In this document: one piece after another, positions 2,929-42,999 of the stretch | Position numbering within the stretch: the first letter of the stretch is position 1 | How the letters are laid out: each line of letters begins with the position of its first letter | Assembly: GCA_008632985.1 (NCBI GenBank) | Contig: QPGO01000021.1 | Span: forward strand, 682,001-746,000 | DNA from: Psammoneis japonica | Taxonomy: Eukaryota | Length of the DNA: 64,000 nucleotides | Direction: 5' to 3' | The notes under the pieces: model-generated | Seen by the model: only the letters and a program-made list of their open reading frames with translations | The model's database searches: none | What the model was told of the DNA's origin: nothing | Translations under genes and position numbers: made by a program

Positions 2929-4974
2929 CTACTGCAAGCTCTTTTGTTCACGCCACAAGCGAGCGCATTCCTTCATAACTTGAGGCTGAGTTACCTTTTC
3001 ATTCGTATCACTTTCTAATTTCGCTCGGACTGCCTTGGAGTTGTTCTTGACAAACAAATTATAAGCCGAAGGCGGGGCCTTTTTGCGCGGTGTGCGATCC
3101 ACAACACCCTTGTTGCCGGCAGAAGGAGGCTCAATCTCTTGCAACATACTCTTGCATTTTCCGCAACGGTGTTTGGTGACGCTCACGCTGCGACTGTGTC
3201 GTTGGATCACCACGTTACAGGCCTTGTTGGTACACGCCCAAGCATACTTGAAGGAAATGGCATAGTCGTGCGTTGTAGTAACTTCCACATCGGGTACATT
3301 AGCCATGGCTTGCTTGGCCCATTTGCGAAAGCATGGTCCGTGTGGCGGTTTGCTGTTCTTATCCACCAACCAAGCAGCTGCATGACACATCTCGTGTAGC
3401 AAAGTAGAACGCAGTCGGGACTGGCTGTCAATAATCTTGCTGGACAGCTCGATGGTTGCAGAGTATTCAACGTCTTGATTGTACTGCTTAGTTTTCTTGA
3501 GACGAGTCAAGCCAGCGGTAGTACGAAGCCTGTTAGACCATTCCAATGTTGTGGAGGCAGACAACCGTCCGCCAAAAGCTGCTTTGTCAAAATTAGAGAA
3601 TGTCCCTTTAGCGATTTCCTCTCGCGACTTTCGAAACGCAGAATTAGATAGCGACTTTGAAGAGTTGGCCAGACGAGATTTGGTCGTTGTTGGGCGTGGT
3701 GCTGGCTTGACGATCGGAGGTGGAGTATCCGCTTCTTTTTCACTACTTGTGGAGCCGTCGTCAATTTCCTCTTGCAACTTTCGAAGCATAGAAGTATATA
3801 GCGACTTTGTAGCTTTTGATGGACGAGATTTGGTCGTTGTTGGGCGTGGTGCTGGCTTGGTAAAGGGAGGTGGGGTACCCGCTTCTTCTTCACCATTTGT
3901 GAAGTCTTCGTCAATTTCCTTTTGCAACTTTTGAAGCACCGAAGTAGATAGCGACTTTGTAGCTTTTGATGGACGAGATTTGGTCGTTGTTGGGCGTGGT
4001 GCTGACTTGGCGATCGGAGGTGGGGTATCCGCTTCTTCTTTACTACTCGTGGAGTCGTCGTCAATTAAGAAACGGGAGGTGGCCCGAGTAAGTTCTTGAA
4101 TGGATCCATCATCATCATTATCAACGAGATTTACCAAGGTAGCTTGATCTTTCTGCTCCCCTGTGTTAGAGATGCTATCTCTTTCCGAACCAGAGTCGTA
4201 AAGAGAAAATTGCTTCGCTGGTGAATTTTTGTTGCTCTGGGGAGTCGGTGAAATCGTTGGAATGCTGATATCGGCTTTATTCAAATCTAATTCCAAAAGA
4301 GGCTCTTCAATAGACAATTTGATATCCGGGCTGCTTTTTAAACCATTGCCTTTTGTTTCTGTGTCGCTCTCTTCGTTTTCTGAATCAGACGAAAAGATTA
4401 CAGCGGCCTGTCGTGATTTGAAGACCTTTCTGGCAGGCGGACGTTGCATATTTTCCTCTTCGTCGTCGCTGCTGCTAACAAGGTCAATTACTTGCGATGA
4501 AGACTCTGCTCTAATGGAGCGACTGGATTTCTGATTTTTCGGAGGAGCATCAATGAGATCGAAAGAAGAATCGTCGGAACACCTACTGCTTTCCTCATCG
4601 TCGGGACGAAACCAAGAGGAGTCTGAACTGGAATCCAACAACTCGATAAATTCACTTTCAGGATGATCTGATATTGTTGACTTGTTCGATGAGCTGTCTT
4701 GTTGACAGGCGCTTTTATCGTGGTCTTCTTTCCGGTCTTCGTCCTCTCCTCCTTCGCTCCCATCAACCACCTCAAAATCGCTGTCGGATGATTCTGATTC
4801 GACGGCGTAGTCGCCCTTCAAGAGGCTTGGCGGTAAAAAGCTATCAGGTGCGCAGCATGGACACGAGCTATCGTGAACTTCAGCATCGTCTTTAAAAGTG
4901 TCCCTCTCAACGTCAACAGCGAGACTCTTTGCCCCATCATCATCTCGTCGTACTTCATCACGCGTCATGCTCAT
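2929..4974 (-). CDS. GCNA: GCNA/ACRC-like SprT metalloprotease with acidic disordered N-terminus, Zn ribbon and C-terminal HMG box
   Basis: WSNRLRTTAG, TLLHEMCH (HExxH), PHGPCFRKWA, CTNKAC..RHSRS..CGKC, then PSAYNLFVK...VMKECARLW (HMG). First ATG is at 4974; the ORF track starts at a TTG at 4983. Confidence 0.85.
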   Translation of the reverse strand: MSMTRDEVRRDDDGAKSLAVDVERDTFKDDAEVHDSSCPCCAPDSFLPPSLLKGDYAVESESSDSDFEVVDGSEGGEDEDRKEDHDKSACQQDSSSNKSTISDHPESEFIELLDSSSDSSWFRPDDEESSRCSDDSSFDLIDAPPKNQKSSRSIRAESSSQVIDLVSSSDDEEENMQRPPARKVFKSRQAAVIFSSDSENEESDTETKGNGLKSSPDIKLSIEEPLLELDLNKADISIPTISPTPQSNKNSPAKQFSLYDSGSERDSISNTGEQKDQATLVNLVDNDDDGSIQELTRATSRFLIDDDSTSSKEEADTPPPIAKSAPRPTTTKSRPSKATKSLSTSVLQKLQKEIDEDFTNGEEEAGTPPPFTKPAPRPTTTKSRPSKATKSLYTSMLRKLQEEIDDGSTSSEKEADTPPPIVKPAPRPTTTKSRLANSSKSLSNSAFRKSREEIAKGTFSNFDKAAFGGRLSASTTLEWSNRLRTTAGLTRLKKTKQYNQDVEYSATIELSSKIIDSQSRLRSTLLHEMCHAAAWLVDKNSKPPHGPCFRKWAKQAMANVPDVEVTTTHDYAISFKYAWACTNKACNVVIQRHSRSVSVTKHRCGKCKSMLQEIEPPSAGNKGVVDRTPRKKAPPSAYNLFVKNNSKAVRAKLESDTNEKVTQPQVMKECARLWREQKSLQ
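3615..4065 (-). repeat. Three intragenic 150-bp (50-aa) tandem repeats in the GCNA-like gene
   Basis: The unit IDD..EADTPPP..KPAPRPTTTKSR..KSL recurs with a 150-bp period (tcaatt at 3761, 3911, 4061). Confidence 0.9.
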
Positions 4975-5269
4975 TCTTGTCAAAATTTCGAATCTTGTAG
5001 GTATCCGTGTATCAATTCAAGTCCTGAAAGAACTTACAGTGGACAACAACGTTCATTCAAAGGCATTGACCTGGGGCCGGATCACATGTAAGCCGCTAAG
5101 ATGTTGCACCGTCGCTGTGTCTCCAATTAATCGTCAACGTCTTTTGGCGTTTGTCGTCATTCAAACAAAACTGAGCAACGGATTTATTTGTCTCTGCGTA
5201 GAATTTGTAGCAGAGCCTACAGTACGTGAAGCCGGCAAGGCGGCGGGTGTGCCCGAGGGGGTGCGGGCG

Positions 5270-5790
5270 ACGGAGCGACGATTAGTCGTGGTGATCAGGC
5301 AGAAATTTTTTGCTGACGTGGACGCACGACTTACTCGCACCCCATCCATCGCAACTTTTATTTTTTGCTTCCAGTTTGCTTCTGCTTTTTTTCCTTGCAT
5401 CTGCCATCCACAACGTCAGTGGCCGCAAAGAGGGGTCCCTTTTCGTTCATGTCAAGAAGAATTGAGAATGGGCTGTTCGAACGTTGGCAGCAGCTGCAGA
5501 GTCGAGCTGTGCTCCTCTTTTGCTGGCCTGTTTTTGTCGTGATGGAAAGGACATCAACAGATGCCTTTGCCATTCGGGGGTGATGCACTTTTGGGACAAG
5601 AAGCACTTGACTGTTTGTGGCACACTGTCAGAAATGACAGTGCAGCCAGGTGACTGACGTTGCTCGAAGAAGCTGTGAAATTTTTGAACCAACAGCAGAA
5701 GAAGATGTGGTGGAAAATGAGAAGGTCATTGTTGTGATTGAAAACAATCTGCCAGAACCTCCTGCTGATCTTGACAAAGAAACCTTGACT
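5270..5790 (+). pseudogene. Decayed 5' fragment duplicated from the kinase gene at 16224
   Basis: Aligns by eye with ~16070-16555 (e.g. CTGCCAGAACCTCCTGCYGATCTYGACAARGAAACCTTGACTG); contains stops and frameshifts. Confidence 0.85.
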
Positions 5791-6619
5791 GCAGCCTCTC
5801 ATTTTTTGTTTTCAGATTGGCGCGCGGCATCTGTCTCACTGGCGCCGGGGTGCTGGGTCTGTGTGGCTCCATCTCTGCGAGATGCCCCCCACAAAAAGAA
5901 TGCGCACCTTCCAGCAACCAAAAGGAAGTGAGATCATTGAAGGCAGTCTTGTTGTCAGTGCGATTGGGGGTTTTCCCAGCACAATTTGCGTGCACAAGAA
6001 AACACGCAGGATCTGTCCAGCACTCCAAATGCCCCAATCTCACTGATTGACAGAGACCATTTTAGTGCAAATCTGTCTGTGTCCCCCCCCCCCCTTGCCC
6101 TGATCCTCAACCAGACCAGAGACAGATGGGCAAAACAAAGTCAGGATTTGGGGCTGACCAGGTTCAAAATGACCAAATTTGCAAGTGGTCTTTGTGTGTG
6201 AAATGGTGTCCAATGACTTTCAAAGGTTTCGGGGCTTCATGAAATTTGCCATGTAAGTTGACATGTGACATGCCGAATTTCAAATTGCCCCAGTCATTTT
6301 TGGGTTGGGATGCCATTGACTCCTGGCCAATCAATTGACTGTTTTTCTAATTTGAGGTCACCGGTCACAAACGTTTTAATGCCAGCAGCTGCTTTTGTCT
6401 TTCAATTGTTCACCCTCGTTTGTGAATGTGACATGGCACTCATTTTCCATTGAGATGATGGACGTTCTGGTTTTGTGCGTGTTTTTGTGTGCAATCTTGC
6501 TTTCAAACTGGCGATCATGTGTGTGCAGACAACTCAACCCCCTTTGTTTCTGCGACTGACAAGGACAATCTGCAAGCCCAGATTGCAGCTGCATTGTTAA
6601 AATCAGTGTCCGATGTTCA

Positions 6620-7780
6620 CAACCTTTGGTTGCAATGCATTCTGTCTTCATTTGCAGCAGGAGTGTGAGAGCCTTCTTGGAGCCCTCTTGTGCACCTCAA
6701 GTGACAAAGCATCTCATTTGATGCCAGCAGTGACATGCCGCCCTTCATTTTCCTGCCATCAAGCTTCTTCCTAAAATAAAGTCCCTTTCTTGTTGTCACT
6801 CTGGACAGAACCACATGAACTTTTGTCTCTGTGATGGTCAAAGTTGTTGACAACCAAGGTTCTCCCCATTGTCCTCCCCTGGAGCTTGTGCCCAGTTGTT
6901 GCATTGTTGCACCAAACTGGGAACTGAGTCATCTGCATCACAGGGACAGGAAAGTTGGCTGCGCATGTCTCTCTCCTTGGAGCATCACAAAATGGACCCC
7001 CCTGCCTTGCTTTTCCTCATGCCACAAGACAATGGACTCAACTTGCAAAAACACAGGCTGATCTCACCCAATGACTGTTGATCATCATCAACTCCAAATC
7101 ATCTGAAGAAACACCTTTCTTTAGCTGCACTCTCTTAAAAAGCTGATGGTGCCACTGGCTTCCTTTTTTTCATGTCCTCAATGAGGCTCATCTCATCAGA
7201 GGGCAGCCATGGCAAAGCTTGAGATGTGGGTTCACATGCCTTGATTTGTTCTCAGCTTGCTTGACATGAGCATCTGGACAGGCTGCAAACAAAATGTAAA
7301 TCCACATGCTCATGCCTGCTGGTGCTCTGCTTTTTTTTTCACTTGAGGTTGCTTGCCCACACAAACCACACAACAGCATGGGTTGGAGGTGGTGTGCAAG
7401 AGATTTTTGAGTGTGTTGTCTCTAACACCTTCTTGAAAATGCCACCACTGACAGCATTCTGGCAAAGATTGGTGGTGGTGGCATGGGCTGCATTGCTGAG
7501 GATGATGTCACTGGCTTTCCTTCTTTGGCCCAGCCCCCAGTCTTGCCAGACCCAAATGCAATGACGCGCTTGTTGATTTCCTTCACATCAGCCCTTGAAT
7601 TGTTCAAAAGCATGAAAAAATCTCACCCTGCTGCACTGGACCACCCTCAAATCGGTGATTTCCTCTGAGTTTGACAAACAATCAATTGAGCCATTGACGC
7701 CATTCTTGTTCAAAGTCTTTGGTGCAGACAAAAACAGCCAAGCCCAAGAAGAACTTTGTGGATGTCCTTCTCTCTGAGAA
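6620..7780 (-). mobile_element. Decayed PIF1-family helicase remnant (Helitron-like)
   Basis: The minus strand gives LKLCHGCPLM, ATTGHKLQG (~6880-6905) and HVVLSRV, matching PIF1 motifs LxLxxGxPxM, AxTxHKxQG and YVALSR with Y->C/H changes. Confidence 0.6.
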
Positions 7781-8171
7781 TGACAAATGGGACAATGTTC
7801 ATCATTAAAAATTCAAATTTTTATCTCAACTCCATGTCGTGCATTGTAGACAATGAGACACAGTCGTTCAGCGAAGCGTCCAATTCTACATTACTCTCTT
7901 CGACAGTCTCACTTCCAAAGACGCCCCCCAAACTGTCAAGCTGGTGGCAGGCCAGCTAGAACTAGCGACAATGGTAGCGGAATTCTGACAGGGGATAGCC
8001 GAAGGGCCCTCTGTTTTGCAATATTTACTAGAACAAAGACGAGTCACGTAGTCTTTCTATGTAACAAGTTCTATGTGTCACGTACCATAATTCATATCAT
8101 AATGCAAACGTCAGCTACTTCCAGAGCAGCGGATCGCAAACGATTGTTATCGACAGCAAGGGTCTTGATCT

Positions 8172-13790: not shown

Positions 13791-14057
13791 TGCACTTTGG
13801 GTATTCAGGAAACTTCTCTACAGTATCCTCCACAGTGCAGTAGGAGAAAAGGCCTTCCGTATGAGGATTCGCGTGCGACGGTAACATGTTTCCATCGCTC
13901 ATCGCGTGAGCTTTCGTGTTTCGATTGATTTTTGATTTTTTTTCAAATTTCAAGACGACTCAACGCACGACTTGACGCACGACTTAACGCACTCTCACGA
14001 TTCACAGCCAAGATTCAACGGACGAACTTTTTTTCCTCCGCGCGCCCCCTCCGTTTC

Positions 14058-14140
14058 CCAACTTTCAGCCGAAAGTTGGAGCGCTTCGCGCTCCAAAAGG
14101 GGGCAACTTTCGCCGAAAGTTCGCGCTGCGCGCGAAAGTT
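14058..14140. repeat. Cluster of four hairpins, candidate right end of the YR-RusA element
   Basis: CCAACTTTC-agcc-GAAAGTTGG; TTGGAGCGC-ttc-GCGCTCCAA; AACTTTCG-c-CGAAAGTT; TTCGCGC-tgc-GCGCGAA. Confidence 0.65.
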
Positions 14141-14249
14141 CAATTTTTCCGTGCACGCCTGCTCTGCGGTCCAAATCATTTCGGTTGTTGGCAACTTGTT
14201 GTGATCCTGTCAATGCAGTTTTGCTGTGGGAGTGTCAACAAATGCCGTG

Positions 14250-15700
14250 GTCAATGGACCTGGTCACGGTTCCATTGGCATTGTTTTGTGGGTCTGGTTT
14301 TTGTCCCCAGGAGCAAAAGAAGCACTTTGTCGAGCCAGCGGGTCAATCATGTCACCAAAACAGAATCCTGCCAGGCTTCCTGTGCTGCTTGTTGCACTTG
14401 CCTTAGTTTCTGCATTGGCTGTGGGTTCCTTGCAGCACCAATGCAACCTTTGAATTGTCAGTGCAACAGGTGCCAATTGAGGATTCCAAATGATGAATCG
14501 TGCGAACATCAAAGGGCCAATCAGCATCACGAAGATTGTCTCCCCACACTTGCCCACAAATTTAAAATCTTTGATGCCTTGGTCCTGTGCCATTTGTTTG
14601 ACAGCTTTGATGTGTGCATCGGTTGAGGGGGCGGAGGCACATTTGCAGGGGTTGAGCAGCTTCCCTCCCATGTGCAGGTTCATGAAAACAACAGATGCTG
14701 TTGATGCCCTGCAAACAACACATGCTGTTGATGCCCTGCATTTCCATGGTGTTTTTGTGGGGTCATTCTCAACATGGGATGAAACAAATTCCCCAAATCT
14801 GAGCTGCACAAGTGTTTGTTGCAGTCAAGAAGAATGCGGTGTTGCATGGTGGCATGCAGGCTGTGGGTGTTGGAAATGCCCTCTTTCTGTGGATGCACAC
14901 TCACCATGGTCATGTTCTCAATGACTGCATGTTCACACATCATGGGCCATGGCATGGCTTTGAAGGGCACATGGTGCACAGCAGCCTGCGTCATTTCTTT
15001 TATGACCTCGATGCTGACTGCACTCAACCTTGGGTGCATGGTCACTTGCATTCACTGCTGGCAAAAGCTTGAGGTTCATCCCCTCCCATCAGCCACATCA
15101 GCAAGCATGGCCTTGAACTCTGGGTTGCATTTGACAAAATTGATCTTGAACATTGCCTTGTTGTGTTGCCACAGGCCCAGCACCAAATCTGTGTGCTTCT
15201 TGGAACTCAGCTTCACACCACTCAACCAACACTTGATTGTCTTGTCAACAGCATGCAGCAGCTCAATGCCACAAAAACTTCCACAATGTTGCTGCTGCAC
15301 AGCGTCATTCCCTCTGCTTTTGTCAGGTGTCTCAGGTGGTGTTGCAATCATGCCATTCCTTGCACGGGAACAGTGTGCTTGTTCAGTCTTGCCTTTGGCA
15401 CGGCAACAGTTTGGCGCCAAATGTCCACCATTCTGTCTGCATCCTCTGACACAAGAATGGACAGATTTTTTGCCTGGTTGGAATGCAGGAATGTTTGAAA
15501 TCTCCAACACTGGGTGTTCCGGCCTCGTGGCACAGTTGCAGCGCTGCTGCCTCAGCATTTCTTACCTCTCTCTTGAAGCAGCCTGCTTTGTTGTGCTTCA
15601 CGATTGAGTTGGTGCTTGGGTCAGGTGTGATCGTTGATGGTTTCAATGTCAGTGTCTCTGAAGGGAAGTTGGTGTGCTCAGTGTCTCGTCCAGTGATCTC
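14250..15700 (-). mobile_element. Decayed Copia-type integrase remnant
   Basis: Fragments PSVGDFKH, VDIW..KARL and SIEVIKE...HHVPFKAMP...HPQKEGIS resemble Copia integrase regions; frameshifted and TpA-depleted. Confidence 0.55.
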
Positions 15701-16223
15701 GCAATGTGTTCACCCTGCTCAAATTCTTTCTGCATGTGTCCACAGCAGATCTTCCTCTTGACATCTTCGCATGTCATGTTGGGTGCATCACTGTTCAGGG
15801 TTGAAGAATGGAACTTTATCTCATGCATTGTTCATGGCTTTTCACTTGTTTTCTGCAGTCCCCTGCTGCTTGTGGTGCAAGTGTGAATGGCCTTGTGGAC
15901 TTCCACTGAATCTGTGTGCACTCAACAAGTGCCAGCACCTCTTTGAAGTGAATGCCAAAAATGTGTCCAGTCAAACACCGAATTCTTTGCATGCAAGCTC
16001 TTGAGATTGGTGCAATCGTTGTGTTTCTCGCATCATCGATGGAAAAGGGCAAGTTGGACAACGGGCACGGGCGACGGAGCGACGACCATGATGAGAAATG
16101 ATGATTTGCTGACGTGGAAGCACGACTCGCATTCCTCTTCTGCATCCGCCATCCACAACGTCAGTGCGTGGCAGCGAAGCGAGGAGAAGTGGTCACTTTT
16201 CGTCCAGATAGATTGAGAGAAGG

Positions 16224-17479
16224 ATGGGCTATTCGAACCTCACCAGCTGCTGCAGTCGTGCTGCGCTCTTTTTTTCCTTGGTCTCCCTGTTTGTGATGGA
16301 AAAGACAGCAACAAATGCTTTTACCGTTGGGGGGCGACGCTCTTTTGGGACCAGAAGCCCTAGACTATTTGCTGCGCCGCCAGAAACGACAGTGCAGGTG
16401 ACCGACGTGGAAGAGGCCGTAGAAGCTCTGCAGGAGGCGGAAATTTTCGAGCCGGCAGTAGAAGAAGTTGTAACAGAAGATGAGGAGGTCATTATTGCCA
16501 TTGAAAATGATCTGCCAGAACCTCCTGCCGATCTCGACAAGGAAACCTTGACTGAAGATATTGAACGAGTCTTGTTAGAAAACGAAACGGCTCTGTCTCC
16601 TCCAGAAATCGCTTCTGAAGGTGCCTCTGTCAACCAGCCAGAGCTCGAAGAAGCTGCCATTTCGGCATCGCTTTACATGAACCCTGCCACAGCCAAGATT
16701 GCCAGCAATCTCGTTATTACCTGGGAACCGACTGCAGCAGAGCTTTTATCGCACATGGTTCTTCTAAGTAATCCCAATCGTCCCCTGATGATTGGATTGG
16801 TGGGAATCCCTGGAAGTGGTAAAAGCACATCAGCTGAGATTTTGGCTGCTCTGCTCAACACTACTGACTCGGAAAAAGAAGCCATTGTCATGCCCATGGA
16901 TGGATTTCACCTTTCATTAGAAACACTTGGCCAGATGCCGAATGCGCCGGATATGATTTATAGACGAGGAGCTCCAGATACCTTTGACCCTCATGGGCTA
17001 GCCGTCGCATTGGAGCGCATTCGGTCGGGGAATGAAACGACCGTCACGATACCGGGCTTTGATCACGCCAAAGGGGACCCCGTGCCAAATCAACACACAT
17101 TTGATCGTTCACGTCATAACGTTGTCATTTGTGAGGGCATTTATCTGCTGCATGACAATGACGGATGGGAAAACATCAAGAGTTTCTTTGACTGGACAAT
17201 CTACATTGACGCCGATGTTGACGCATGCATTGAACGACTGAAAGAGCGAAACAAGTGCATTCCGGTAAGTAGATGATTTGATGCTGCCTGCCTATGCATA
17301 AGATGGATTTTGCAGTATGCCTTTATCACTACTTTTTGACCCTTCTACCTTTGATTCAGGGGTACACACCAGAAGAGATTGAGACTCGTTGCGACGTTGT
17401 TGATCGATCGAACGCAGAACTTTCGCGTGATGGGGCTCGCAAGTTTGCCAGCCAGATTGTCGGCTCCGGTGCTTCCTAA
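16224..17479 (+). CDS. Plastid-targeted P-loop kinase (uridine/pantothenate kinase-like, YggC/YFH7 type); exons 16224-17264 and 17360-17479
   Basis: Signal peptide ending TNA-F; GIPGSGKST, MDGFH, RRGAPDTFD, FDHAKGDP, EGIYLL; removing the GTAAGT..TTCAG intron restores CIPGYTPEE. Confidence 0.85.
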
Positions 17480-24622: not shown

Positions 24623-27600
24623 CTACTCAGGGTGGTAGACGGCATCAGGATGATGGTACTTGATATCGAGTCTCTGTCCATCGAATGGATATCCGTCTGT
24701 TCTGGTAATATCAAATATGAAGCCAGGCTTTTGATAGGATACATACATGTGGCGGTTATCTGGAGAGAATGCCAACCCAGTCGAATCCCCGGTATAATTC
24801 AAGCCATCGATAACTGTGTAATAGTTACCCAGTGAATCGCGCCCATGGACGCCATTGGCTCCCCATTTGTTCTCTTCGCAAAAGTAAAGGATTGAATCGT
24901 CGCCACTGGAGAGTCGCGCCACCTGATCAGGCTTTTTATCAAAAGCTCCGGACTCGGTAGAACTGCTTTCGTATACTCCAGAATCAAGATCTAAAATGAA
25001 GAGCTTTTGATTTCCTTTGCAGGTAAAGTAGACAAATCCATTTCGAATGTCAATTCCCTCTGGGTTCCTGTTAAGAATAGGACAATTCGGCATGGCCATG
25101 TCAGAAAGCTGTGCATCAGATGACAAACTATCGATGGCATGCTTTCAAAACTTAACGGGGACAACTTACTTGTAATATTCCCGAGCGCTTGCCTCTGCAA
25201 TAGCCATATTGTCTGTCCACCTAAACCTGCCATTGTCGGGTTCAAAGGGATCGGGTTCCAGAACCAAATAGTCAACACCTGCGGTCCCCGTTTCGTTAGT
25301 GTGCAGCAAGTCAGTGTAATTTCCAGAAACGTTTGCCCTTGCAATAGCCAGTTTGTCTGGCGAAAACCTGTGCACCGGTCCAGCTTCTCGATCTGCTGTG
25401 ATGTAGAATTTTACGTTGATAGGATCGCGATTATCATATGCTGCGCTTTCAAACCAGTCGCCCGCTAACCCTCCAATTAGGGTCTTTCTGGGGGGCATGA
25501 TACCAAATGGATCAACTTCCCACACCTGTCCACCGTCTGTCTCCTCGCACGATAGCCATGTGTTCCAGAAAGTTTTGCCGCCTCCACAATTGCGTCGAGT
25601 TATGTTTCTCTCGATAAGTCGTTCATACCCGACGACTTGTGCTTTGGCGTTGAAAATGAGAGCTCCTACAGTACCCGCAGCGGTACTTTCTGCGTTTGAT
25701 ACGTAGCGAAAGCCTCCTGTAGTTGGGTCCTCAAAAACGGCAGCACTGAATATGATGTAGGGTGTAAACAGCAATGAGAATGACATGCCTCTTTAGCAAC
25801 CACGCACCAAAGCAGTACGAGCGAATACTTACCCATCTGGGTCAAGATGAAACACAATGGAGCTCCTACCTCGACCTGGTCCTTCAAATCTTACTTTCTT
25901 CCTTTGCTCCGCAATGATGCGAGAGGTCAACCCTGTGGATAAAACCAAGCCATTTTCGTATACCGTCAAATCACCTGGAACATAGGTAATTGGGCCATCT
26001 TTCGGTGGTTCATAGCAATAGTGTGCCCCAGATACGTCTCCCGGTCCTCCGTTGACACAGCCTGCAACTGGCTGGCTGTTGGTCCTTGAGTAGCACACTA
26101 GTCCAAGATCCGCTCTGCATTTCGTGTCATCGTTGAAACAATCTCCTTCGCATCTGTCACAGGGTCTGTCGCTTGTACATACGTCCAGTTTGAGGGGTTT
26201 AGGATAGCCTAAAGTTGGACGCTCTAAGCGCGAAGCAACTGTTATTGGACTTGCTGTTGGCGACGAAGTAATATCTTGGGTTTGCTTGGTTACAGTTGGG
26301 CTTGCTGTAGGGAACGACGCTGCTGGAGAAGTCGGTGATATTGTAGGACCTAGTGACAATTCTAGAGGAGGCTGCAGTATCAGTGAGCTGTCAATACAGT
26401 AGTTTGTGTTCCAGACACCTTGGGGATATCCCACTGAACGACAACCAGGTACAGCTTCAGTCCCGCTGCGGAAGAAGCAAGACAAACCAGGGCCACAGTC
26501 TGAATGGTCGGAACAGTGTCCGCGACACATTCCCAGACCCAATGGAAAGCTATCCAGCGGATTTCCGTTCTTCGCTACAACTTGAACAAGAATTCCCTCC
26601 CCAGGTTTGGGTTTGTAGCAATAGTCTGGTGAGTAAAAGAAGGAGCTCTGTTAGCAACTAACGTACAAAGAAACACAAAGAGGAATTTCAATGTGTCCTA
26701 GCAATATACACGTACCGTGGCCTGCTGCGGGGCGTCCATTACAACCGGGAGGAGCCGGCTCCGACCAACGACGTTTATAGCACGCAAGCCCCAGTGCACA
26801 ATGAGAATCTGCATCCAATAGTTATATGAGGAACCATATAGCTTGAGCATCCACAAAAGTGAACAATGAAAGACAGGTCGATATCTACGTACCCTTGTTG
26901 CAATCGCCTTTGCATGGACCAAGCGGCCTAATAGATCGATCCTTAGCAGCTATTCCAACAAATTCAAGAAAGCCGGTGGTGTTTGCATTACTAGTAGTGT
27001 CAGTTTGAGAACATGAGATGGACTGTCCACTGTTCACAGTACCTCGCGTGTCATTTACTGGATTGGGCTGCCAGCTAAAATCATCGTAGACGCAGCCTGT
27101 ACCTCCTAATTGAAGCGAATATCCTACTGCTGTATCTGCGTTTTCGTTGACACCAATATCCACCGAAGTCCTTCCTTTTACTGGGCCGCCGACAGCTTTG
27201 AAAGCTCCTCCGTAGCTCAAAAACTGCAAAGCCTTCCCTTCTGGATTTACCAAAGCGATTCCATCACCAGTTCTGGTCCCGTCTCTTATTCGTTGAGTTT
27301 CCACATAGTAAAACGACAAGCCATTAGAATCACTGCCTCTTGTAGCGGTAACCAACGGTAGGGTTGCATATGATCTGCCATTTCTACCTCGATACAATAT
27401 GAGATAATAGGATGACACGTCGGTCCCTGTGGGGAACGCAACTTCAATAAATTCTCTAATATCAGGGCCAAAGTTGTTGTAATGCAGCTCATTGATGAAC
27501 GCTACTTGTTTCTGTACAGTGGAAGAAAACACCGCACGGCACGTTAGCTTCCGAACTCCACTCTTTTACCCTCTTCCCCGCAGCGCCACTCATCACTTAC

Positions 27601-28374: not shown

Positions 28375-31300
28375 TCACTCCGAGTGGTAGATGGCATCAG
28401 GATTATGGTACTTGATATCGAGCCTTTGTCCGTCGAACGGATAGCCATCACTTCTCGTCACATCGAATATATAGCCAGGTTTCTGATAGGATAGGTACAT
28501 GTGACGATTATCAGGTGAAAAGGCTAGTCCCGACGTTTCACCTGTGAAGTTGTTCCTGCGGTGGATTCAACAACAAAAATTTAGCTAAACTGAGCTTTCT
28601 ATCACAATGTCACCTGCAACCATGTTTTCTTACCCAGTATTTTCCAGGATAGTGTAATAGTTCCCCAAGGTATCCCTACCGTGAATTCCGTTACTTCCAG
28701 TTTTGCTGTCCTCACAAAAGTACAAGATTGAGTTGTCTCCGTTTAGTAGCCTGGCAACTTGATCAGGTTTGCGATCGAAAGCTCCTGAATCGGTCGAGCT
28801 GCTTTCGTACACACCGGCATCGAGATCCAAAATGAAAAGCTTTTTGTTTCCCTTGCACGTAAAGTAACATATTCCGTCTCGGATGTCAATACCCTCAGGC
28901 TTCTTGTAGTAAATGCTGGCGCTTTCCTCCGCAATGGTCAGATTGTCTGTCCACCAGAACTTCCCATTGTCAGGATTGAAAGTTTCAGGTTCAAGAACTA
29001 GATACTCCACAGTTGCAGTCCCAGTTACGTTGGTGTGCAACAAGTCAGTGTAGTTTCCGCTTGCGTTGGCATACGCCACAGCTAGTTCGTCCGGCGAGAA
29101 CCTGTATACGGGTCCAGCTTCTCGATCGGCTGTGATGAAGAATTTTACATTGATGGGATCGCGATTGTCGTAAGCTGCGCTTTCAAACCAGTCGCCCGTC
29201 AAACCTCCAATGAGGGTCTTCCGGGGTGGCATGATGCCAAATGGATCCACTTCCCACACTTGTCCACCGTCTGTCTCCTCGCACGATAGCCATGTGTTGA
29301 AGAAAGTTTTGCCTCCTCCACAATTGCGTCGAGTTATGCTATCCGCAAGAAGGTTTTCATATCCGACAACCTCAGCGTCTGCATTAAAGACGATAGCACC
29401 CACCGTACCTCTGGAGCCGCTCTCTGCATTTGATACGTAGCGAAAGCCTCCCGAAGAAGGATCTTCAAATATGGCAGCTCTGAATATGATGTAGGGTGTA
29501 AAAGACAATGAGAATGACATGCCTCCATAGCAACCATGAACCAGAGCAGTACGAGCGAATACTTACCCATCGGGGTCAACGTGAAAGATATCGTCGCTGC
29601 TTCCTCCACCTGATACATCAAAGTTGACTCTTTTATACTGCTCCGCAATTATGCGAGAGGTCAACCCTGTCGATAAAACCAGGCCGTTTTCGTATACCGT
29701 CAAATCACCAGGAACATAGGTAACAGGACCATCTGTCGGTGGTTCATAGCAATAGTGTGCTCCTGATACGTCTCCTGGTCCTCCATTGACGCAGCCTACA
29801 ACAGGTTGGTTACCATTGCGCGAGTAACATACCAGCCCAAGGTCCGTTCTGCATTTCGCGTCATCATTTGCGCAATCTCCTTCGCATCTTGCACATGGTG
29901 TTTCCGAAGTACATGTTTTTGTTTTGAGAGGTTTCGGGTATCCTAGTGTAGGTTCCACGACACCTTGTAGAGCTTGTGGGCTCATGGATGGCAATGGAGT
30001 TTGTCCTCTTGTGGGAGCAGTTGTCGGAGTTGAAGTAGGTGAATTTGAGGCATCTGTCGGGTACGTCGAGGGATGTTGCGTCGGTATCTCTGTACGCGAT
30101 GGCATTGGTGTTGAGATTGGTGGCGAAGATGTAGGATTGAGTGTCGGAGGCAGCGATGGACTGGGTGTTGGGGAAGGTATCGGTATTTGATTTGCACTAG
30201 ATTTTGCAATTGTCGGCATAGCTGTAAGTGGTGGGGGACCGACCACTGTTGTAGGACTAACGGAAGTTGTTGGTGTGAGCGTGGGTGGAAGCGCTTTTGT
30301 TGCTGTTGGTCCTGCGGTGACCATGATGGGCTCTGCTTCCGGAGACAAGTTTAGTGTAGGATTTGGAGTAGACGTCGATGAGAACTGCGTGGGTGCTCCC
30401 GTGGGCGGTCCTACCAGCGTTTGAGTTGGCATCACTGTTGTTGGGCTTGAAGTTAGGATGGGAATTGATGTTGGTAGTCCTGTCGCTGTCAGAAGCGTTG
30501 GAGATGGAGATGGAAATGTTGGAGTTTGAGTTGGTGACTCTGTTGTCGTTGAGAAAAGCGTTGGAGCAATCGTAGGCGGTCCTGTTGGGGATGGACCCGA
30601 CGTTGTATAAAGAGTCGGTGCAGCGGTTGATTCTGGAGAAGCAGTTGATATGGACATAGTTGTCGGCTCTGGCGTTGTAATCTCTGATACAGGTTTCGGT
30701 GAAGATGGGTTGGAAGTAAGCATAACAGCAAATGATGGTGACAACGTTGGGGACACATGTGGCATCATTGAAGGAGATGTTGTCTGCGCGACAGTACTAG
30801 GGTTTGTCGTTGGTGACGCGGTGGGCGTTCCAATAGCCGAAGCTGCTCTATAGCAGTAGTTTGTTCCCCAGATACCTTGCACAGCGTTGTTTGAACTACA
30901 ACCTGGCACATCCTCGGTTCCGCGGCGAAAGAAGCAAGACAATCCAGGGAGACACTCTGAATGGGCCCTGCAATGCCCTTGACACAAACCGAGGGATGCA
31001 TCCTTCGGGGCTATATTGGCAACTTTAACGAGAATACCTTCCTCCGGAACATGGCAGTAGTCTGAAGAGGAAGGAAGTTGGTACGCATTTCGTTTCAGAA
31101 AGGAAGTGCTGTAATTAGAAGAAAGCATTTTTCAGATGAACTTACCTTTACCACCCGATGGCCTTCCGAAACATCCTGGAGGAGCAGGATCTCCTTTGTT
31201 TCTACCGAAGCAAGCGAGCCCCAACTCACAATGAGCGTCTTCGGTTGTCGATTGTAGAATACGATTGGTGAGACGGCGAGCCGTTGCGGTATGGAACGGA

Positions 31301-32072
31301 AAGAGAACAATTCTTACCCTTGTTACAATCACCCTCACAAATACCGAGCGGTAGAATTGAAGGATTGCTAGGCCACCCGAGAAACTCAAGAATAAAAATC
31401 TCATTTGTTGGACAGGAGACTGACTGCCCTGTATTAATGTTCCCCCTCGTATCCACTAGGGCGGTTGCTTGCCAAGAGAATTCGCCATAGTAGCAACCTG
31501 TACCACCCAGCTGCAAAGAGTGACCAACTGGTGTCCACCACGGTTCTGAAACCCCAATGTCGGTAGAAGCCATGCCAGCTGCAGGCCCGTTGATTGCAAC
31601 GAATGAATCAGTCTCGTAACTTAAAAACTGAACAACCAAGCCTGACGGATCTATTAAGGCAATTCCATCTCCTTGATTGTTGCCGTTTCGAATTCCTAGA
31701 ATGTCAATGTAGCTGAAAGAAAGCCCATTCGAATCACCGCTAGAAGTTGCTGTGGCAAGTGAAATCGACTTGTACTTGGAGCCGCTTTTGCCGCGATAGA
31801 GGACTATCATATAGTTCGAAATGTCGACATCGGTGGGGTGCGCGATTTCCACAAACTCTGCCACATCATCCCCCTGATTAGCATAATGGATCTCATTGAT
31901 GAAAACAACATTGGTCTGAGGAAAAGAAAAATAGAGTCAGCCAATGCATCTCACGCAACATGCCGTTCACTCATCGCATTGATCGCACCTGGAGTTGCCG
32001 TCCTTGACTTCCGAAGGCACCGATGGCAGGTAACAAAAAAGATACGAAAAGGATGAAGAGAGAACGCATCAT
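28375..32072 (-). CDS. Multi-exon secreted PhoX/DUF839-like protein with frustulin-like domains and long PTS linker (paralog 2)
   Basis: Signal peptide MMRSLFILFV; same domain order and near-identical motifs as paralog 1; ends LDIKYHNPDAIYHSE-stop. Confidence 0.8.
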
Positions 32073-33180
32073 ATATTGCATGAAAAGTGGTTTCTTCGGT
32101 GCAGTCCGAAATGCTATGCTTCTGGGTTCGAGAATTTGGCTTCGGGGATTCGAAAAGTGGAGCAATCCTTTGTTTGCTGCATGCATCAAAAAATTTGTGG
32201 ACGTGTCCTATTACAGGATACGTACACCTGCTGTAGAAAAGACGCACATGTCAGAGTATTTTGATAAAAGCAATCTGTCCATATTGCCCTTATTTTCTCC
32301 CTGTTCGTTTTCGAGGTTCTCGGGCGGGCTCGCGGGCTACTGAAACGCAAAATTTGCGAATCGCAAATTAATTTATAAAAACAAATAGCTCGAATTTTTT
32401 CACGATGAAAGCACGTGCGAGGTCTCTGAGTGCTTCATTTTTCGCTTCAAATGAGCAAATGCTACTGTTTCGACAACCGAAGGTCTGTAAGTGACATGAA
32501 ATAACAAACCAATCAGATTATTGTCATTATGAAGAGCTGTGTGACGTTTTGTTTGTGAGGAAAGGCGGTGTAATCATCCAAAAAGGTCATTTTTTGTTGA
32601 AATCTTGCGATGCGTTGGCATGAGTTGCTGTCACGAGAAGGCAATTTCCTTTGAAAATAAGGATTTCTTGTCATTTCTCGTGCATCATGTCTTTTCTTAA
32701 TCGAAGTAGAAAGAACGCCTGCACCTTGAATTGCACCAGAGGATGTTGGCCGCGTCGCAAAGACGATCTTGGAGGGTGACAAGGGTTGTTTCTCGACTCG
32801 CCACGCGATGATTGTGCGGGGATTCGGAATTTGTCGCAAATTTTGCGATGTCGCAAATTTTGCGATTCGGTAGCGGGGTGGGGGCCGGGTCTTCCCGGTG
32901 TTTTTCATCGTTGGTTGAATGAATCGAAAAACGTTGTTGTCGGTGGCAGTGATTGCTGAAAACTGGGGAGACCACTTTAGCACAAATGTCGCATTCAATC
33001 AAGGCAGCTGGAGGAGGAAAGAACTTGCGCTTTTCTGCTCTCACAAAATCACACACAGAAGCCAGAGAGGCTGTGCATCTGCCTTTTGTCTGACACTTCT
33101 CAAGGAGACATCGAACGATGCAATCTTCAGTGTGCATCTTGGACAGCTGGGGCATTGGCACAGAACACCTTCCCAACAAA

Positions 33181-36100
33181 TGTCAGACCTGACAGAAATT
33201 GAAGGCAAATGGCAAGAATTCAAACAACAACTCCTTGCTGCTGTCTAAACAGCAGATGAGTCTCCACTCAGAGACTGTTGCAGGAGCCGAAAGACGTGTG
33301 AGTCGGTGTGATCGGGCTGCTGTTGTCATTCTTGTGAGCCTTGTGGCTCGAAAGCAAACTGCATCGCGCATGAATGCACGGAACTAAAGCACACAAAACT
33401 GTGTGCGGCAAACTAAACAGCGCGCGACACTTCGCGCGCATCCAAATCCTGTTCAAATCCTGTCACTCCCCAGTTTGCTTGAGGAGCCACAGAAACAGAT
33501 TCGACTTCGGATGGAATGAAGTTCCAGAACATGAGGGGGCGGAGAAGGTCCCAGATTTGGGAGTGACCCCAATGCTTGCTGAGAATGTCAGCAGGGTTGC
33601 GGGAGCCTTCGATGAAGTGGAACTCAAGGCAACCAGAGGCAATTGCCTCACGCACACGGTGGAACGACAGTGCGGTGTGTCGCTTGTGTAACTTGGAGTG
33701 CGGGATGGTGGCACTGTCTACAACCGACTTGTTGTCACCGAACATGTAACCAACATTACGGGTCGGGACGCCAAGGCAGCGCAGGGTGATGCGCAGGTCG
33801 ACAATCTGCTCGACACAATTCCTTGCGGCAACAAATTCAGATCCGCAGGTTGCAGTCTCCACGGTGGCTTGTTTCTTGGAGAACCAATCAGCCGGGAATT
33901 TGTTGAGGAAGTGGAGCATTCCCATGACAGAGCGCCCGGTGAGCATGCAATGGCACAAGTTTGCATCGACGTAGTGGGTGGCAGTGACGAACTTGCCAAG
34001 GGGTGGTGGAGCGTCCTTCGGGATCATCTCTTCCGCTTCACCATACACGGAATGCATCCATTCATGGGCCGGAGCAGGGAGATCCGAACAGTCGGGCTCT
34101 TCCGTGCGAACGCGGAGAGCACCGTGTCGCATCTTGGAGAGGCACCCACAGACGCGTTTGGCACGATCCAAATGGCCTTGGCGGGGCGCAGCTCGGAAGC
34201 TAGAGAGTGACATGACAGCCGTGGTAATGTCAATTCGACCAAGGGACACTGCCCATTGGAGTGAACCAACAAGAGACTGGAACTTGTGAATGCCATCGGA
34301 TCCCAGCAGTTCGGAAGTGTCCAGTTCGGGGTGGTCACCCTTCTCTAGAGGTGACAGGGCGTTGGTGGCAGGTTTCTCCCCAAACAGTCGGGCGTAGCTG
34401 TCGACCATGCGCTCGATGTACTTGCGCGGAGACAGGCACAAGGTTCCGTCGGGGTCCCGGGAAAAGTCGCAACCCAGATGGAACTCAATGGGTCCCGCAC
34501 CCTTGAGCTTGAACTTGCACTTTTCCGTGAGAGTGTCGACGAAAGATTGAGGGTCCTTCATGGCAATGGCGAGGTCATCCACATAAACTGCAATGCATTC
34601 ACAGTGGTCGCCGTTCCTGCGCATCCAAATGTCGGGTTCGGCGCGGCAGGGGAAGAAACCTTCAGCTCGCAGGCAGTCGGCGAAGCGCTCGTGCCAGCGG
34701 AGACCGGAGCTGCGCAGTCCACACAGTGCCTTGTGGATGACAAGGATGTGTCCTTCGAGTTTGCCAAATTCGGGTCCAGCTACAATGCAAAGCTTCTCCT
34801 TGGTGGTGGCTTCAAGGCAGGCATTGCCAATGTCGGTGGCCCATGTCTCCAGCTCGTTGAGTTCGGCCAGGAAAATCATCAGCCGAAGGCCACGGAGGGA
34901 GACTGCTCCGGAGCAGACACTGTCGACAGGTGCGTCCGTGAGGTGCCCGTCGGCTACGAGTCGTGCCTTGTGGCGACCGTCGTGTTTCACGTCGTGCACC
35001 AGGTGCACTCGGTGCATGAGCGCCAGCAGCCATGTGTGGGCGGGCGAACCAAAACGGTCCATGACAGTGTTCGCCATGCGCTTCATGGTCTGGTGTCGAC
35101 GTTCGGCAAAGTTTTGGTGTTGCTGGTGAGGCTCACTTTGCCAGCGGAGACCGGAGCTGCGCAGTCCATGCAGTGCCTTGTGGATGACAAGGATGTGTCC
35201 TTCGAGTTTGCCAAATTCGGGTCCAGCCACAATGTAAAGCTTCTCCTTGGTGGTGGCTTCAAGGTGGGCATTGCCAATGTCGGTGGCCCATGTCTCCAGC
35301 TCGTTGAGTTCGGCCAGGAAAATCATCAGCCGAAGGCCACGGAGGGAGACTGCTCCGGAGTAGACACTGTCGACAGGCATGTCCGTGAGGTGCCCGTCGG
35401 CTACGAGTCGTGCCTTGTGGCGACCGTCGTGTTTCACGTCGTGCACCAGGTGCACTCGGATCTTCTTGTGTCCCGCAGGAGGAGTGGAAGACTTGAAGGG
35501 CCCGCAGTCATGGAAGACTTCGTATTCGTCGAGTTGGTCCATCTCGAGATTAGTTGCGTCTCCCCACTTGCGGTTGCCGTTGCGTTCGTCCAGTGACATG
35601 GCGTGTTTGTAGTTCCGGGGAACTTCGCATCCGCACTTGTAGCGAGGTGCAGTGTGGAAGGAGCGAAGCTTGGCTTGGTTGGCCATGCGAAATGGCTTCT
35701 TTTGGCGCCTCGCGACAGTGCGGAACCACTTCCAGCCATCCGTGTCGAGGAGTCCGTTCTCTCGTGCATAGATGGCACAGGTGACGGGGTCGTCCTTGGC
35801 AATGATGACAAGAGGCTCGGACGTGATCTCCCCACTTTCCCATTCAAGCATGATGTTGTAGCTTGAGCCTTTCCAGGTTGGGTCGTGAGGCTTCAGAGGT
35901 CCTTCGTGTGATGCGATGCGTCGAAATTTCCAAATGGTGGTGTCTTCGTCTTCTTGCTCAATGTGATTCATGATGTCATTGCAGGCAAGGACTTCCTCGT
36001 ATTCGTCATTGTTGACAGAGCAGACGAACTTAGTGAGCTCGGGATTGCCGTTCACTTTCCATTCGTGGTCTTCAACGGCCTTGACGATGCGAGCTCTGTG

Positions 36101-41190: not shown

Positions 41191-41192
41191 GA

Positions 41193-42805: not shown

Positions 42806-42999
42806 ATCCGCATCGTTTGTGCAATCCACTCTTTTTCACGGTGGGAGGTGAGTTCTCAAGCCGACACCTGTCTCTTCTCCAACCAGTCTCGTTGCACATG
42901 GCACAGAAAGTTCCTTTGTGTCATCAAAACATGCGTGAAGCACTGCACACATTTCGGGTGCAAGAAGCATCTTGTTTGCATTCTGCCCAGTCTTCCCTT

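Follow-up and report, generated by a model that had tools for sequence, protein, structure and literature searches.

A stretch of 64,000 nucleotides from the diatom Psammoneis japonica (GenBank assembly GCA_008632985.1, contig QPGO01000021.1, positions 682,001 to 746,000), hereafter the window, raises the question of what removes the dinucleotide TA (TpA) from its DNA and how far the bases next to each TA decide its fate. The window is eukaryotic nuclear DNA with long, intron-free genes, and about half of it consists of domains in which TA is nearly gone, CG is lowered, and TG and CA reach up to twice the expected frequency. A preliminary description had proposed that the TA remaining in these decayed domains are mostly YTAR (Y, pyrimidine; R, purine), that mutated sites are mostly TAY or RTA, and that a 5'-TAY-3' target adenine is preferred, with the U/T-A-C contexts favored by TadA-family deaminases as no more than a mechanistic hint. 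We found that the surviving TA carry a strong flank bias, and we consider it very likely that TpA has been lost from these domains in a context-dependent manner.

Domains were called by two-state Markov segmentation on the window, which gave seven TA-poor, CG-poor domains with a total length of 27,770 bp. The stretch 33366-39050, which carries a Copia frame, was removed by hand and analyzed apart because the frame is TA-poor but CG-normal, and 39051-39974 was counted as TA-normal. The seven domains, with observed/expected ratios (o/e) where they were determined singly, are:

1-1256: TA-poor, no TA; CG o/e 0.15, TG/CA o/e 1.88/1.92
5361-7806: TA-poor and CG-poor, non-coding, between two genes; 11 TA (o/e 0.06), CG o/e 0.27, TG/CA o/e 1.73/1.63
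14139-16037: TA-poor, directly upstream of a kinase gene; 5 TA (o/e 0.04), CG o/e 0.28
32981-33365: TA-poor
39975-41930 and 42200-50342: TA-poor, with a 269-base stretch called normal (41931-42199) between them; repeats and low-copy DNA; over 39975-50342 TA o/e 0.05-0.08, CG o/e 0.35-0.63
52316-64000: TA-poor; 65 TA (o/e 0.09), CG o/e 0.58

Across the seven domains TA o/e is 0-0.09, CG o/e 0.15-0.63 and TG/CA o/e 1.5-2.1; the gene-bearing domains between them have TA o/e of 0.48-0.60 and CG o/e of about 1. In 1-kb windows TA o/e falls as low as 0-0.1 and TG/CA o/e rises to 1.9-2.0. The domain edges are sharp at the scale of 200-400 bases, and the TpA changes are confined to these discrete domains, with adjoining genes a few hundred bases off untouched. 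In 5361-7806, no stop-to-stop frame lying wholly inside the domain is longer than 111 amino acids (aa).

The region from 5400 to 7800 contains 11 TA in 2,401 bases. Eight of these are YTAR (TTAG at 6063, CTAA at 6348, TTAA at 6377, TTAA at 6598, CTAA at 6772, TTAG at 7122, TTAA at 7136 and CTAA at 7423), three are RTAR (GTAA at 6254, ATAA at 6777 and GTAA at 7297), and none of the 11 is RTAY or YTAY. Relative to the YTAR share in the TA-normal domains (180/1188), this excess has a binomial p of 3e-5. When all poor domains were taken together, the 117 surviving TA comprised 62 YTAR, 47 mixed and 8 RTAY sites, compared with 180 YTAR, 650 mixed and 358 RTAY sites among the 1188 TA of the TA-normal domains (Fisher test: YTAR odds ratio 6.3, p=6e-19; RTAY p=4e-9). 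The first claim of the preliminary description thus holds in the region for which it was made and in all poor domains. The five TA that survive in 14139-16037 are TTAG, TTAA, TTAT, TTAC and TTAT.

The preliminary description had named a count of the NTAN tetramers in decayed and genic domains as the check on its claim. In this count the ten strand-symmetric NTAN classes differed strongly between poor and normal domains (chi-square 132.6, 9 degrees of freedom (df), p=3e-24). A second baseline, taken from the flanks of all TA, TG, CA and CG steps inside the poor domains (Y-R steps), removes base composition and asks which former Y-R steps remain TA. The skew persisted (chi-square 80, p=1.6e-13), and depletion is therefore not equal among the tetramers after normalization for composition. 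Per Y-R step in the poor domains, the survivors were 0/377 for ATAT, 0/355 for ATAC and 24/482 for TTAA. As a control, the share of Y..R flanks in poor/normal domains was 0.181/0.188 for AT, 0.295/0.264 for GC and 0.252/0.251 for CG, as against 0.53/0.151 for TA. Only these shares serve as a control; the chi-squares of NATN and NGCN (median 67 and 34 in 117-site subsamples) are confounded by the depleted TA and CG with which their flanks overlap. The YTAR bias among surviving TA is real and far beyond chance. A small example was also found where the preliminary description had placed it:

13956-13991, plus strand: three tandem 12-mers, CGACTCAACGCA / CGACTTGACGCA / CGACTTAACGCA, with TCAA, TTGA and TTAA at the same place

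Here one TTAA stands next to both its products.

What rule produces the bias? A multiplicative model with one factor per strand for the base 3' of the A fits the 16 NTAN counts (deviance 10.9, 12 df, p=0.54). The half-site survival factors are 0.74 for A, 0.48 for G, 0.20 for C and 0.065 for T; the marginal survival is 0.23 for TAA, 0.146 for TAG, 0.075 for TAC and 0.022 for TAT, with bootstrap intervals that separate except for those of TAA and TAG, which barely touch. Sensitivity is graded TAT>TAC>TAG>TAA, mostly through T and then C, and the division into Y and R is a first approximation. The second base 3' of the A (+2) adds as much information as the first (+1) (likelihood-ratio chi-square about 110, df 12, under both baselines). 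The resistant half-sites are TAGA (1.16), TAAA (0.99) and TAAG (0.89), TAGG (0.10) and TAGC (0.18) are as sensitive as TACC (0.10), and TATT and TACT (both 0.03) are the most sensitive, with no survivors at TATA. The survivors include 48 TAGA half-sites and 3 TAGG half-sites, from 157 and 103 in normal domains, respectively (p=5e-7). The 16 half-site ratios were reproducible across the disjoint domain sets 1-50342 (52 TA) and 52316-64000 (65 TA), with a Spearman correlation of 0.87 (p=1e-5). The survivors are sites resistant on both strands, roughly TYTARA, and therefore look like YTAR; examples are TCTAGA at 40972, 54126 and 58090, and TTTAAA at 14563, 54298 and 59692. Since domain 1-1256 is left without any TA, resistant contexts are also lost eventually, and resistance is relative.

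Among the TAC-N half-sites, TACG is the most resistant (factor 0.40 vs 0.03-0.27), yet it is still lost faster than TAGA, TAAA and TAAG. At TACG, 19 of 355 Y-R steps survive, compared with 2 of 820 at TACT; examples are at 44747, 53801, 59831 and 59867. A methylated C beside the A may shield it, or CG and TA may persist together in patches that are less exposed. The hint that the preliminary description took from the U/T-A-C context of TadA does not agree with these results, since TACG is the most resistant TAC-N and TAT exceeds TAC. Of the proposed 5'-TAY-3' target, the flank dependence is real and acts per strand, but it is graded rather than divided between Y and R, and the +2 base counts equally. 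This context rule, like the footprint of the domains, is a matter of direct observation.

Were TA lost by this rule, or were the present TA created by it? A family-wide alignment of transposable elements was approximated with repeats inside the window and with 47 Copia relatives from metagenomes. The features compared inside the window are:

33190-33465: long terminal repeat (LTR) copy in the mutated state, in a poor domain; 93.9% identity to its partner, 99.6% in purine/pyrimidine coding
39726-40001: partner LTR, mostly in the spared island 39051-39974; keeps 5 TA lost by the other LTR
16224-17276, plus strand: intron-free kinase gene of the PRK/uridine-kinase family (Pfam PF00485, E 1.7e-10), in a TA-normal domain; intact copy that serves as reference for its paralog
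5381-5791, plus strand: decayed partial paralog of the kinase gene, corresponding to its 5' part (16126-16554); 73% identity, 85% in purine/pyrimidine coding

The two LTRs differ by 19 transitions and 1 transversion. The TA lost in 33190-33465 are ATAA>ACAA, TTAC>TTGC, ATAG>ACAG, CTAC>CTGC and GTAA>GCAA; about six CG were also lost, with most CG unaltered. Three CTAA are common to both LTRs, and two further sites are TG in one copy and CA in the other. Loss therefore took 5/5 of the non-YTAR and 0/3 of the YTAR sites (p=0.018). Similarly, the decayed paralog has TG or CA at each of the 7 sites where the kinase gene copy has TA; it differs from the gene by 65 transitions and 31 transversions. 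The 5 TA lost between the LTR copies and the 7 changed in the paralog are without exception TAY or RTA sites, and the claim that mutated sites are mostly TAY or RTA is upheld. In these polarized comparisons TA is lost, not gained, and this polarity is observed directly.

These comparisons also bear on the alternative that the context rule lies in the creation of TA, in which the old TA would be gone and the present TA would be new, having arisen by C>T or G>A at Y-CA-R and Y-TG-R. The repeat pairs contain 18 TA-versus-TG/CA differences, which per CA/TG site is about the background transition frequency, and some of the present TA could indeed be new. However, the three unchanged CTAA and the selective loss of the non-YTAR sites in the LTR pair speak for loss. 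Furthermore, repeat copies have 12 TA/TA pairs in common, and the flanks are unchanged in 10 of these, including 5 YTAR; in the Copia frame described below, Tyr codons were kept in 1/10 cases at TAC-Y vs 8/16 at TAC-R; and R..Y flanks occur in 0/18 of the TA/X pairs, where about 4 are expected from the flanks of CA/TG (p=0.008). Uniform creation followed by context-dependent loss would lead to the same conclusion as the explanation that we favor, which is loss at TpA. We regard context-dependent creation as very unlikely.

The substitution spectrum gives the specificity of the loss. Repeats inside the poor domains differ by 299 transitions vs 71 transversions, compared with 218 vs 173 for normal-domain paralogs, including the repeats of the SprT-like gene listed below. 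The control for the spectrum in normal domains was a pair of tandem diverged paralogous segments (24623-27529 and 28375-31930; 58-80% identity) in a TA-normal domain. Repeat pairs in 39975-50342 have 78-89% identity, which becomes 98-100% in purine/pyrimidine coding; for 40127-40270 and 41588-41731, it rises from 78% to 100%. Aligned CA/TG double differences number 62 in the repeats of 39975-50342 vs 5 in the normal-domain paralogs. Differences of the A>G type number 9 after A and 8 after G, whereas T is followed by 7 single and 61 double differences; apart from CA/CG differences linked to CpG, A>G is raised after no base other than T.

This specificity bears on whether a dedicated enzyme is needed. 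Error-prone synthesis or biased repair in silent chromatin, by a polymerase-eta-like WA>WG activity or by mismatch glycosylases that fix G:T as C:G, could in principle produce T:A to C:G changes, and the loss of TA and CpG in the same domains fits patch repair begun at deaminated methyl-cytosine. Nevertheless, the change is limited to TpA: few A>G differences follow A or G, and AA, which a WA motif should affect as well, is undiminished in the poor domains (P(A|A) 0.300 vs 0.305). TA has been lost from the Copia copy without loss of CG, and only a very high and specific rate could erase TA almost completely (0 TA in 1256 bases). There is little likelihood, in our judgment, that repair of this kind is the source.

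If each half-site has its own rate, the direction of change at a mixed site is also predicted: R-TA-R should become R-CA-R, and Y-TA-Y should become Y-TG-Y. Mixed-context sites with unchanged flanks followed this rule in 10/10 cases in the LTR and gene/paralog pairs and in 14/16 cases with the repeat pairs included. Among the contig rows listed (40 of 677), the other copies are in agreement: they have CA at ATAG, GTAA and GTAG sites of the Copia, with TG about equal to CA at GTAC and GTAT. The directional rule is moderately supported but not settled. With respect to the proposed TAY target, the changed base pair is mostly the one beside the sensitizing flank, but whether the attacked base is the A or its paired T is not separable from sequence.

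The Copia element offers an independent record of the change in protein-coding DNA:

33413-37828, minus strand: Copia-type gag-pol frame, 1471 aa (RVT_2, E 2.9e-36)
39051-39974: TA-normal island in the LTR-bounded element, including most of the second LTR; 31 TA per 400 bases at 39201-39600

The frame is TA-poor and CG-normal (TA o/e 0.14-0.21 and CG o/e 0.69-1.1 in five 1-kb windows, 33001-38000), and it is long because TAA and TAG stops have been erased. At 43 consensus-Tyr positions, the window copy has Tyr 12, Cys 16, His 9, Phe 4, Trp 1 and Val 1 times, and the relatives have Cys or His in 53/1463 cells. Other residue types in the window copy are kept at 58-100%; Phe, for example, is kept at 32/39 positions vs 12/43 for Tyr (p=8e-7). 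Retained Tyr codons have a lower model-predicted rate than mutated ones (one-sided p=0.02), and the difference in retention between TAC-Y and TAC-R given above, for which two duplicated sites were dropped, has a two-sided p of 0.087. Because Tyr became both Cys, by A>G in the coding strand, and His, by A>G in its complement, both DNA strands were hit, and not a transcript. At 34065/6, 34143/4, 36569/70 and 43371/2, TG in the window is CA in other copies.

The same observations bear on ADAR-like A-to-I editing of retroelement transcripts that were then reverse-transcribed into DNA. The clearest targets are indeed retroelements (Copia and a probable non-LTR element), and ADAR favors U before the edited A. 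On the other hand, the two strands are hit about equally, with similar o/e for TG and CA and with Tyr changed to both Cys and His. A cellular kinase gene fragment and low-copy DNA are also hit, and the domain edges are not at element edges, as 39051-40001 is spared and 40002 onward is hit. The 3' preference of T>C>G>A is opposite to the 3' G preference of ADAR. The LTR copies differ, which counts against transcript editing only if they stem from one insertion, a point left open by a 596-N gap and by duplications in the element. We consider editing of transcripts highly improbable.

The assembly of this element requires care. The Copia frame adjoins the 596-N gap (N run at about 37.9-38.5 kb) and contains internal duplications (34676-35012 equals 35122-35459; 35012-35156 equals 36581-36725), which repeat integrase and reverse-transcriptase segments and whose copies differ by Tyr/His/Cys at the same positions. 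The summed contig depth of Copia is about 1e5, compared with about 55 for single-copy DNA. The Copia element in the window looks like a chimera, assembled from a family that has thousands of copies; its duplications show in the DNA as well as in the protein. By contig depth, the island 39051-39974 also belongs to the high-copy family; it contains many GTAG, GTAC and ATAT and an (AT)n run at about 39370-39385, with heavily mutated DNA on either side.

Such a chimera, with its N gap and internal duplications, speaks for the reading that the apparent TG and CA are an artefact of misread modified bases or of assembly error. In addition, the public runs with this DNA come from a single sample; it may have been used for the assembly itself, and its platform is not on record. 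No RNA run is listed among them. However, Logan contigs from run X1 (depth about 55) reproduce the low-copy TA-poor DNA with 1-4 differences per 489-611 bases, although, with a sample that may be the assembly's own, this is not independent proof, and Logan contigs span both edges of the normal domain 50343-52315. The differences between Logan contigs and the window amount to 540 transitions and 129 transversions. A modified T misread on both strands would give CG, but CG is depleted, and the poor copies bear indels and transversions like old pseudogenes. An artefact can be given almost no credence.

The loss of CpG has a different character. The ten NCGN classes survive at 0.36-0.73 without excess heterogeneity. 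Because it is context-insensitive and absent from the TA-poor Copia copy, the CpG loss in the poor domains looks like a separate, slower and almost context-insensitive process. It fits ordinary decay of methylated cytosine.

Based on these results, we propose that T:A would be converted to C:G specifically at TpA, giving TpG or CpA, at the DNA level, on both strands and in discrete repeat-rich domains. At each TpA the two strands would contribute half-site rates that add up, and the two bases following the adenine on its 3' side would set each of them, with TAT-N and TAC-Y predicted to be the fastest, TAGG and TAGC fast, TACG intermediate, and TAGA, TAAA and TAAG slow. The action on both strands is read from the copies themselves; as the enzyme and its chemistry, we infer deamination of adenine to hypoxanthine in 5'-T-A-(Y/N)-3' on either strand. 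This deamination may be part of a silencing or defense state of repeats, of the same kind as the TpA hypermutation of Bigelowiella natans described below. As a whole, this account appears probable to us. We give adenine deamination as the chemistry a little less than an even chance, and it is rather doubtful that the enzyme belongs to the TadA/ADAT family.

The closest competitor places the attack on the other base of the pair. Thymine in 5'-R-T-A-3' would be attacked, for example by JBP/TET-type hydroxylation to 5-hydroxymethyluracil, followed by mispairing or faulty repair that yields T>C. In sequence this is formally identical to adenine deamination, as each TAY half-site reads RTA on the opposite strand; nothing in the window separates the two, and sequence alone cannot tell whether the A or its paired T is attacked. 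Kinetoplastid thymine hydroxylases and dinoflagellate hydroxymethyluracil favor T followed by A, which agrees with such an attack. The known base J sites in telomere repeats, however, are Y-T-A and not R-T-A, 5-hydroxymethyluracil opposite A is weakly mutagenic, and in a literature search no base of the 5-hydroxymethyluracil type was reported for diatoms. Attack on thymine is, in our view, unlikely.

Several points weigh against loss by adenine deamination at TpA, or against parts of it. The baselines presuppose an original NTAN composition of the poor domains like that of the gene-rich domains or of their own Y-R steps, and some survivors are repeat copies of one site (59692/60035 and 40581/41113). 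The footprint comes from one 64-kb window, in which an enzyme, a modified base or a new mutation is not seen. The two LTRs may derive from different copies, since the N gap and the internal duplications indicate a chimeric assembly; this weakens the assumption of one insertion but not the direction of the differences. The directional rule has exceptions at 34781 (CTAC>CCAC) and 40870 (ATAA>ATGA), and the test left out a further two sites whose flanks had changed, one in agreement with the rule and one against it. Were the TA of the repeat pairs new, composition alone would give about 62% agreement, and the 14/16 would then have p=0.027. A composition test of direction, which used the TG:CA share by predicted direction, gave no shift (0.577 vs 0.574 in the most asymmetric bin); this test is uninformative, with an expected model difference of about 3 standard errors and an unverifiable baseline.

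The Tyr codons of the Copia frame speak on both sides of the directional rule. In its favor, codons after Y became Cys 10 and His 3 times; those after R became Cys 6 and His 4 times, and the two Cys:His ratios are not significantly different (p=0.65). The +1 model of Tyr direction gains only 1.5 log-likelihood units over 50:50 (-14.43 vs -15.94), and the +1+2 hexamer model shows no gain (-16.18 vs -15.94). The 47 related Copia loci, mostly of 52-68% protein identity to the window copy, have TA o/e of 0.47-1.02, none being as TA-depleted as the window copy; the process is therefore not general in diatoms, and among the Copia loci sampled it is lineage-restricted. Finally, the known DNA-acting or tRNA adenine deaminases do not have the 3' preference found here. 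When about 15 of the 47 relatives were inspected by eye, without a statistic, no trend of YTAR share with TA o/e was seen. Six relatives (L001, L008, L016, L031, L045 and L046) have CG o/e of 0.01-0.22 and the lowest TA o/e of the set (0.47-0.56), and clear YTAR enrichment was not seen in these six, which could carry a weak form of the process in other diatoms. A scan of viral_contigs for relatives gave no match.

How does this footprint compare with known systems? The nearest is the mutation accumulation study of the chlorarachniophyte B. natans (Mettrop et al., bioRxiv 10.64898/2026.01.13.699255). According to the main text of that preprint, two integrated viral regions received 231 of the 302 new substitutions, and of these 231, 230 changed A to G or T to C, in each case at TpA. 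The rate, seen in some lines only, came to about 6e-7 per site and generation, and the measured de novo rate was about 1000-fold above background (bioRxiv 10.64898/2026.01.13.699255). The same text describes TpA-poor, CpA- and TpG-rich clusters in the B. natans genome that are enriched in reverse-transcriptase and transposase domains, proposes an ADAT2-like adenine deaminase, and reads the process as defense against invading DNA; a flank preference is not reported in that main text, and diatoms are not mentioned there (bioRxiv 10.64898/2026.01.13.699255). As far as that text goes, the two footprints are alike in that only T:A>C:G at TpA occurs, giving TpG or CpA, confined to discrete regions with the rest of the genome ordinary.

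The two cases also differ, to the extent that the preprint's main text describes its own. The window belongs to a diatom, a stramenopile, and the targets are retroelements, repeats and a gene fragment, with no viral gene found in the window. Depletion in the window is nearly saturated (TA o/e 0-0.09, compared with 0.45 in the B. natans viral region) and is accompanied by CpG loss in most domains (CG o/e 0.15-0.63), unlike in B. natans, where no accompanying rise of G:C>A:T is described. The +1/+2 flank rule was derived here, where only a footprint is seen, whereas the B. natans rate was measured.

In ascomycetes, fungal repeat-induced point mutation (RIP) resembles the present case in that dinucleotide-specific transitions riddle repeats and their neighbors, with sharp compositional domains and destroyed transposable-element frames. 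However, RIP is C>T at CpA and raises TpA, while in the window TpA falls and CpA/TpG double, which is the reverse change on the other base pair, and low-copy DNA is also affected.

TadA and ADAT deaminate A to hypoxanthine and, in their natural tRNA substrate, have U or T directly 5' of the target A, the TadA site being U-A-C-G. The T immediately 5' of the target is shared with ADAT2-ADAT3 and TadA, as TpA alone is affected in the window. The 3' context is not: TAT>TAC>TAG>TAA with resistant TACG was found here, as against C-G for TadA. Amphioxus ADAT2, the one ADAT2 known to act on DNA, as far as the account in PMC10354150 goes, deaminates both A and C in DNA and prefers GAA for A and TCG for C (PMC10354150), which again differs from the order found here. 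In animals, APOBEC3 and ADAR likewise leave deaminase-driven transition clusters in mobile elements with a fixed neighbor base. APOBEC3 acts on C in a TC or CC context on minus-strand cDNA, and ADAR acts on RNA, on one strand and with a 3' G preference. Unlike these, the change in the window is at the A:T pair of TpA, on both DNA strands and with a 3' pyrimidine preference.

A literature search found no report of TpA hypermutation in diatoms, and a search for hypermutation of diatom retrotransposons gave nothing relevant among the matches listed, as judged by title and the start of the abstract. In the mutation accumulation of P. tricornutum, CG, CC and TG are mutable with a GC>AT bias, with TpA not mentioned in the part of the article that reports this (PMC6604790). 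What is new is the group of organisms, the kind of target and how close depletion comes to saturation, and the specificity fingerprint is derived for the first time; the kind of process is known from one 2026 preprint, within what its main text covers.

The DNA that was hit in the window includes the Copia element, high-copy repeats, the cellular kinase gene fragment and unidentified low-copy DNA. High-copy repeats are hit, but so is DNA of single-copy contig depth (43-50 kb), and of the kinase gene and its paralog one copy only. The remaining features are:

40002-42810 and 46864-47270: inverted and direct repeats within 39975-50342
52316-64000, minus strand: chain of abutting open frames, with single TGA stops at 58219/58220, 59500/59501 and 63195/63196
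2929-4983, minus strand: intron-free SprT-like/HMG-box gene

In the repeat cluster, the identity of a segment to its own reverse complement is 74-79% for both 40002-40920 and 40268-41189, or 98-99% in purine/pyrimidine coding; the nested inverted-repeat cluster spans 40002-41192, and its units recur directly at 41191-42265 and inverted at 46864-47270. Domain 52316-64000 is probably a long decayed non-LTR retroelement, or several. It has a sub-threshold Exo_endo_phos match (61359-61889, E 0.005), and the language-model features of a 483-aa frame resemble diatom hypothetical and zf-RVT/RNase H proteins, which is a lead only. The plus strand of this domain has a strong excess of T over A, with AT skew to -0.38. 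Pfam searches on 20 open frames in the poor domains gave only sub-threshold matches (Abhydrolase_1 E 0.003, Exo_endo_phos E 0.005, DUF7637 E 0.03), and four further frames had no Pfam match.

The best named relatives of the kinase are diatom proteins (Mayamaea, Seminavis, Nitzschia and Fistulifera; at most 68% identity), and a feature search with a further frame also indicates Bacillariophyta. The SprT-like/HMG-box gene contains three tandem 150-base repeats at 3614-4066 that are 82-86% identical. A GC-rich stretch at 14040-14140 sits right at the edge of 14139-16037; it contains several GCGC runs and two copies of a palindrome-like AACTTTC..GCCGAAAGTT. Inspection of nine domain edges revealed no common motif, and the motif of 14040-14140 had no counterpart at the other eight.

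The same footprint as in B. natans, near saturation and in a diatom, widens the phenomenon to major marine primary producers, and the process acts on retroelements and their surroundings, not on viral inserts alone. The reproducible four-base fingerprint T-A-N-N per strand makes candidate enzymes testable in vitro and can be compared directly with the 231 Bigelowiella mutations. An enzyme found in nature that recognizes a short motif and changes A:T to G:C in double-stranded chromosomal DNA would be of interest to base editing. For annotation, TAA and TAG stops vanish in such domains, so that long spurious open frames arise, and Tyr is changed to Cys or His.

As a tentative idea, to which we would give somewhat less weight than to its opposite, this diatom lineage may have a "reverse RIP", in which chromatin-domain-targeted editing erases TpA nearly completely from transposable elements and other silenced DNA, faster than methyl-CpG decays. 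Recognition by its enzyme would then extend over about two bases on the 3' side of the adenine, with T-A-Y-Y the most sensitive and T-A-R-A resistant, and the enzyme would be a new DNA adenine editor with a specificity unlike that of wild-type TadA, ADAR or amphioxus ADAT2. Together with Bigelowiella, TpA editing of invading DNA would then be an old and widespread eukaryotic defense.

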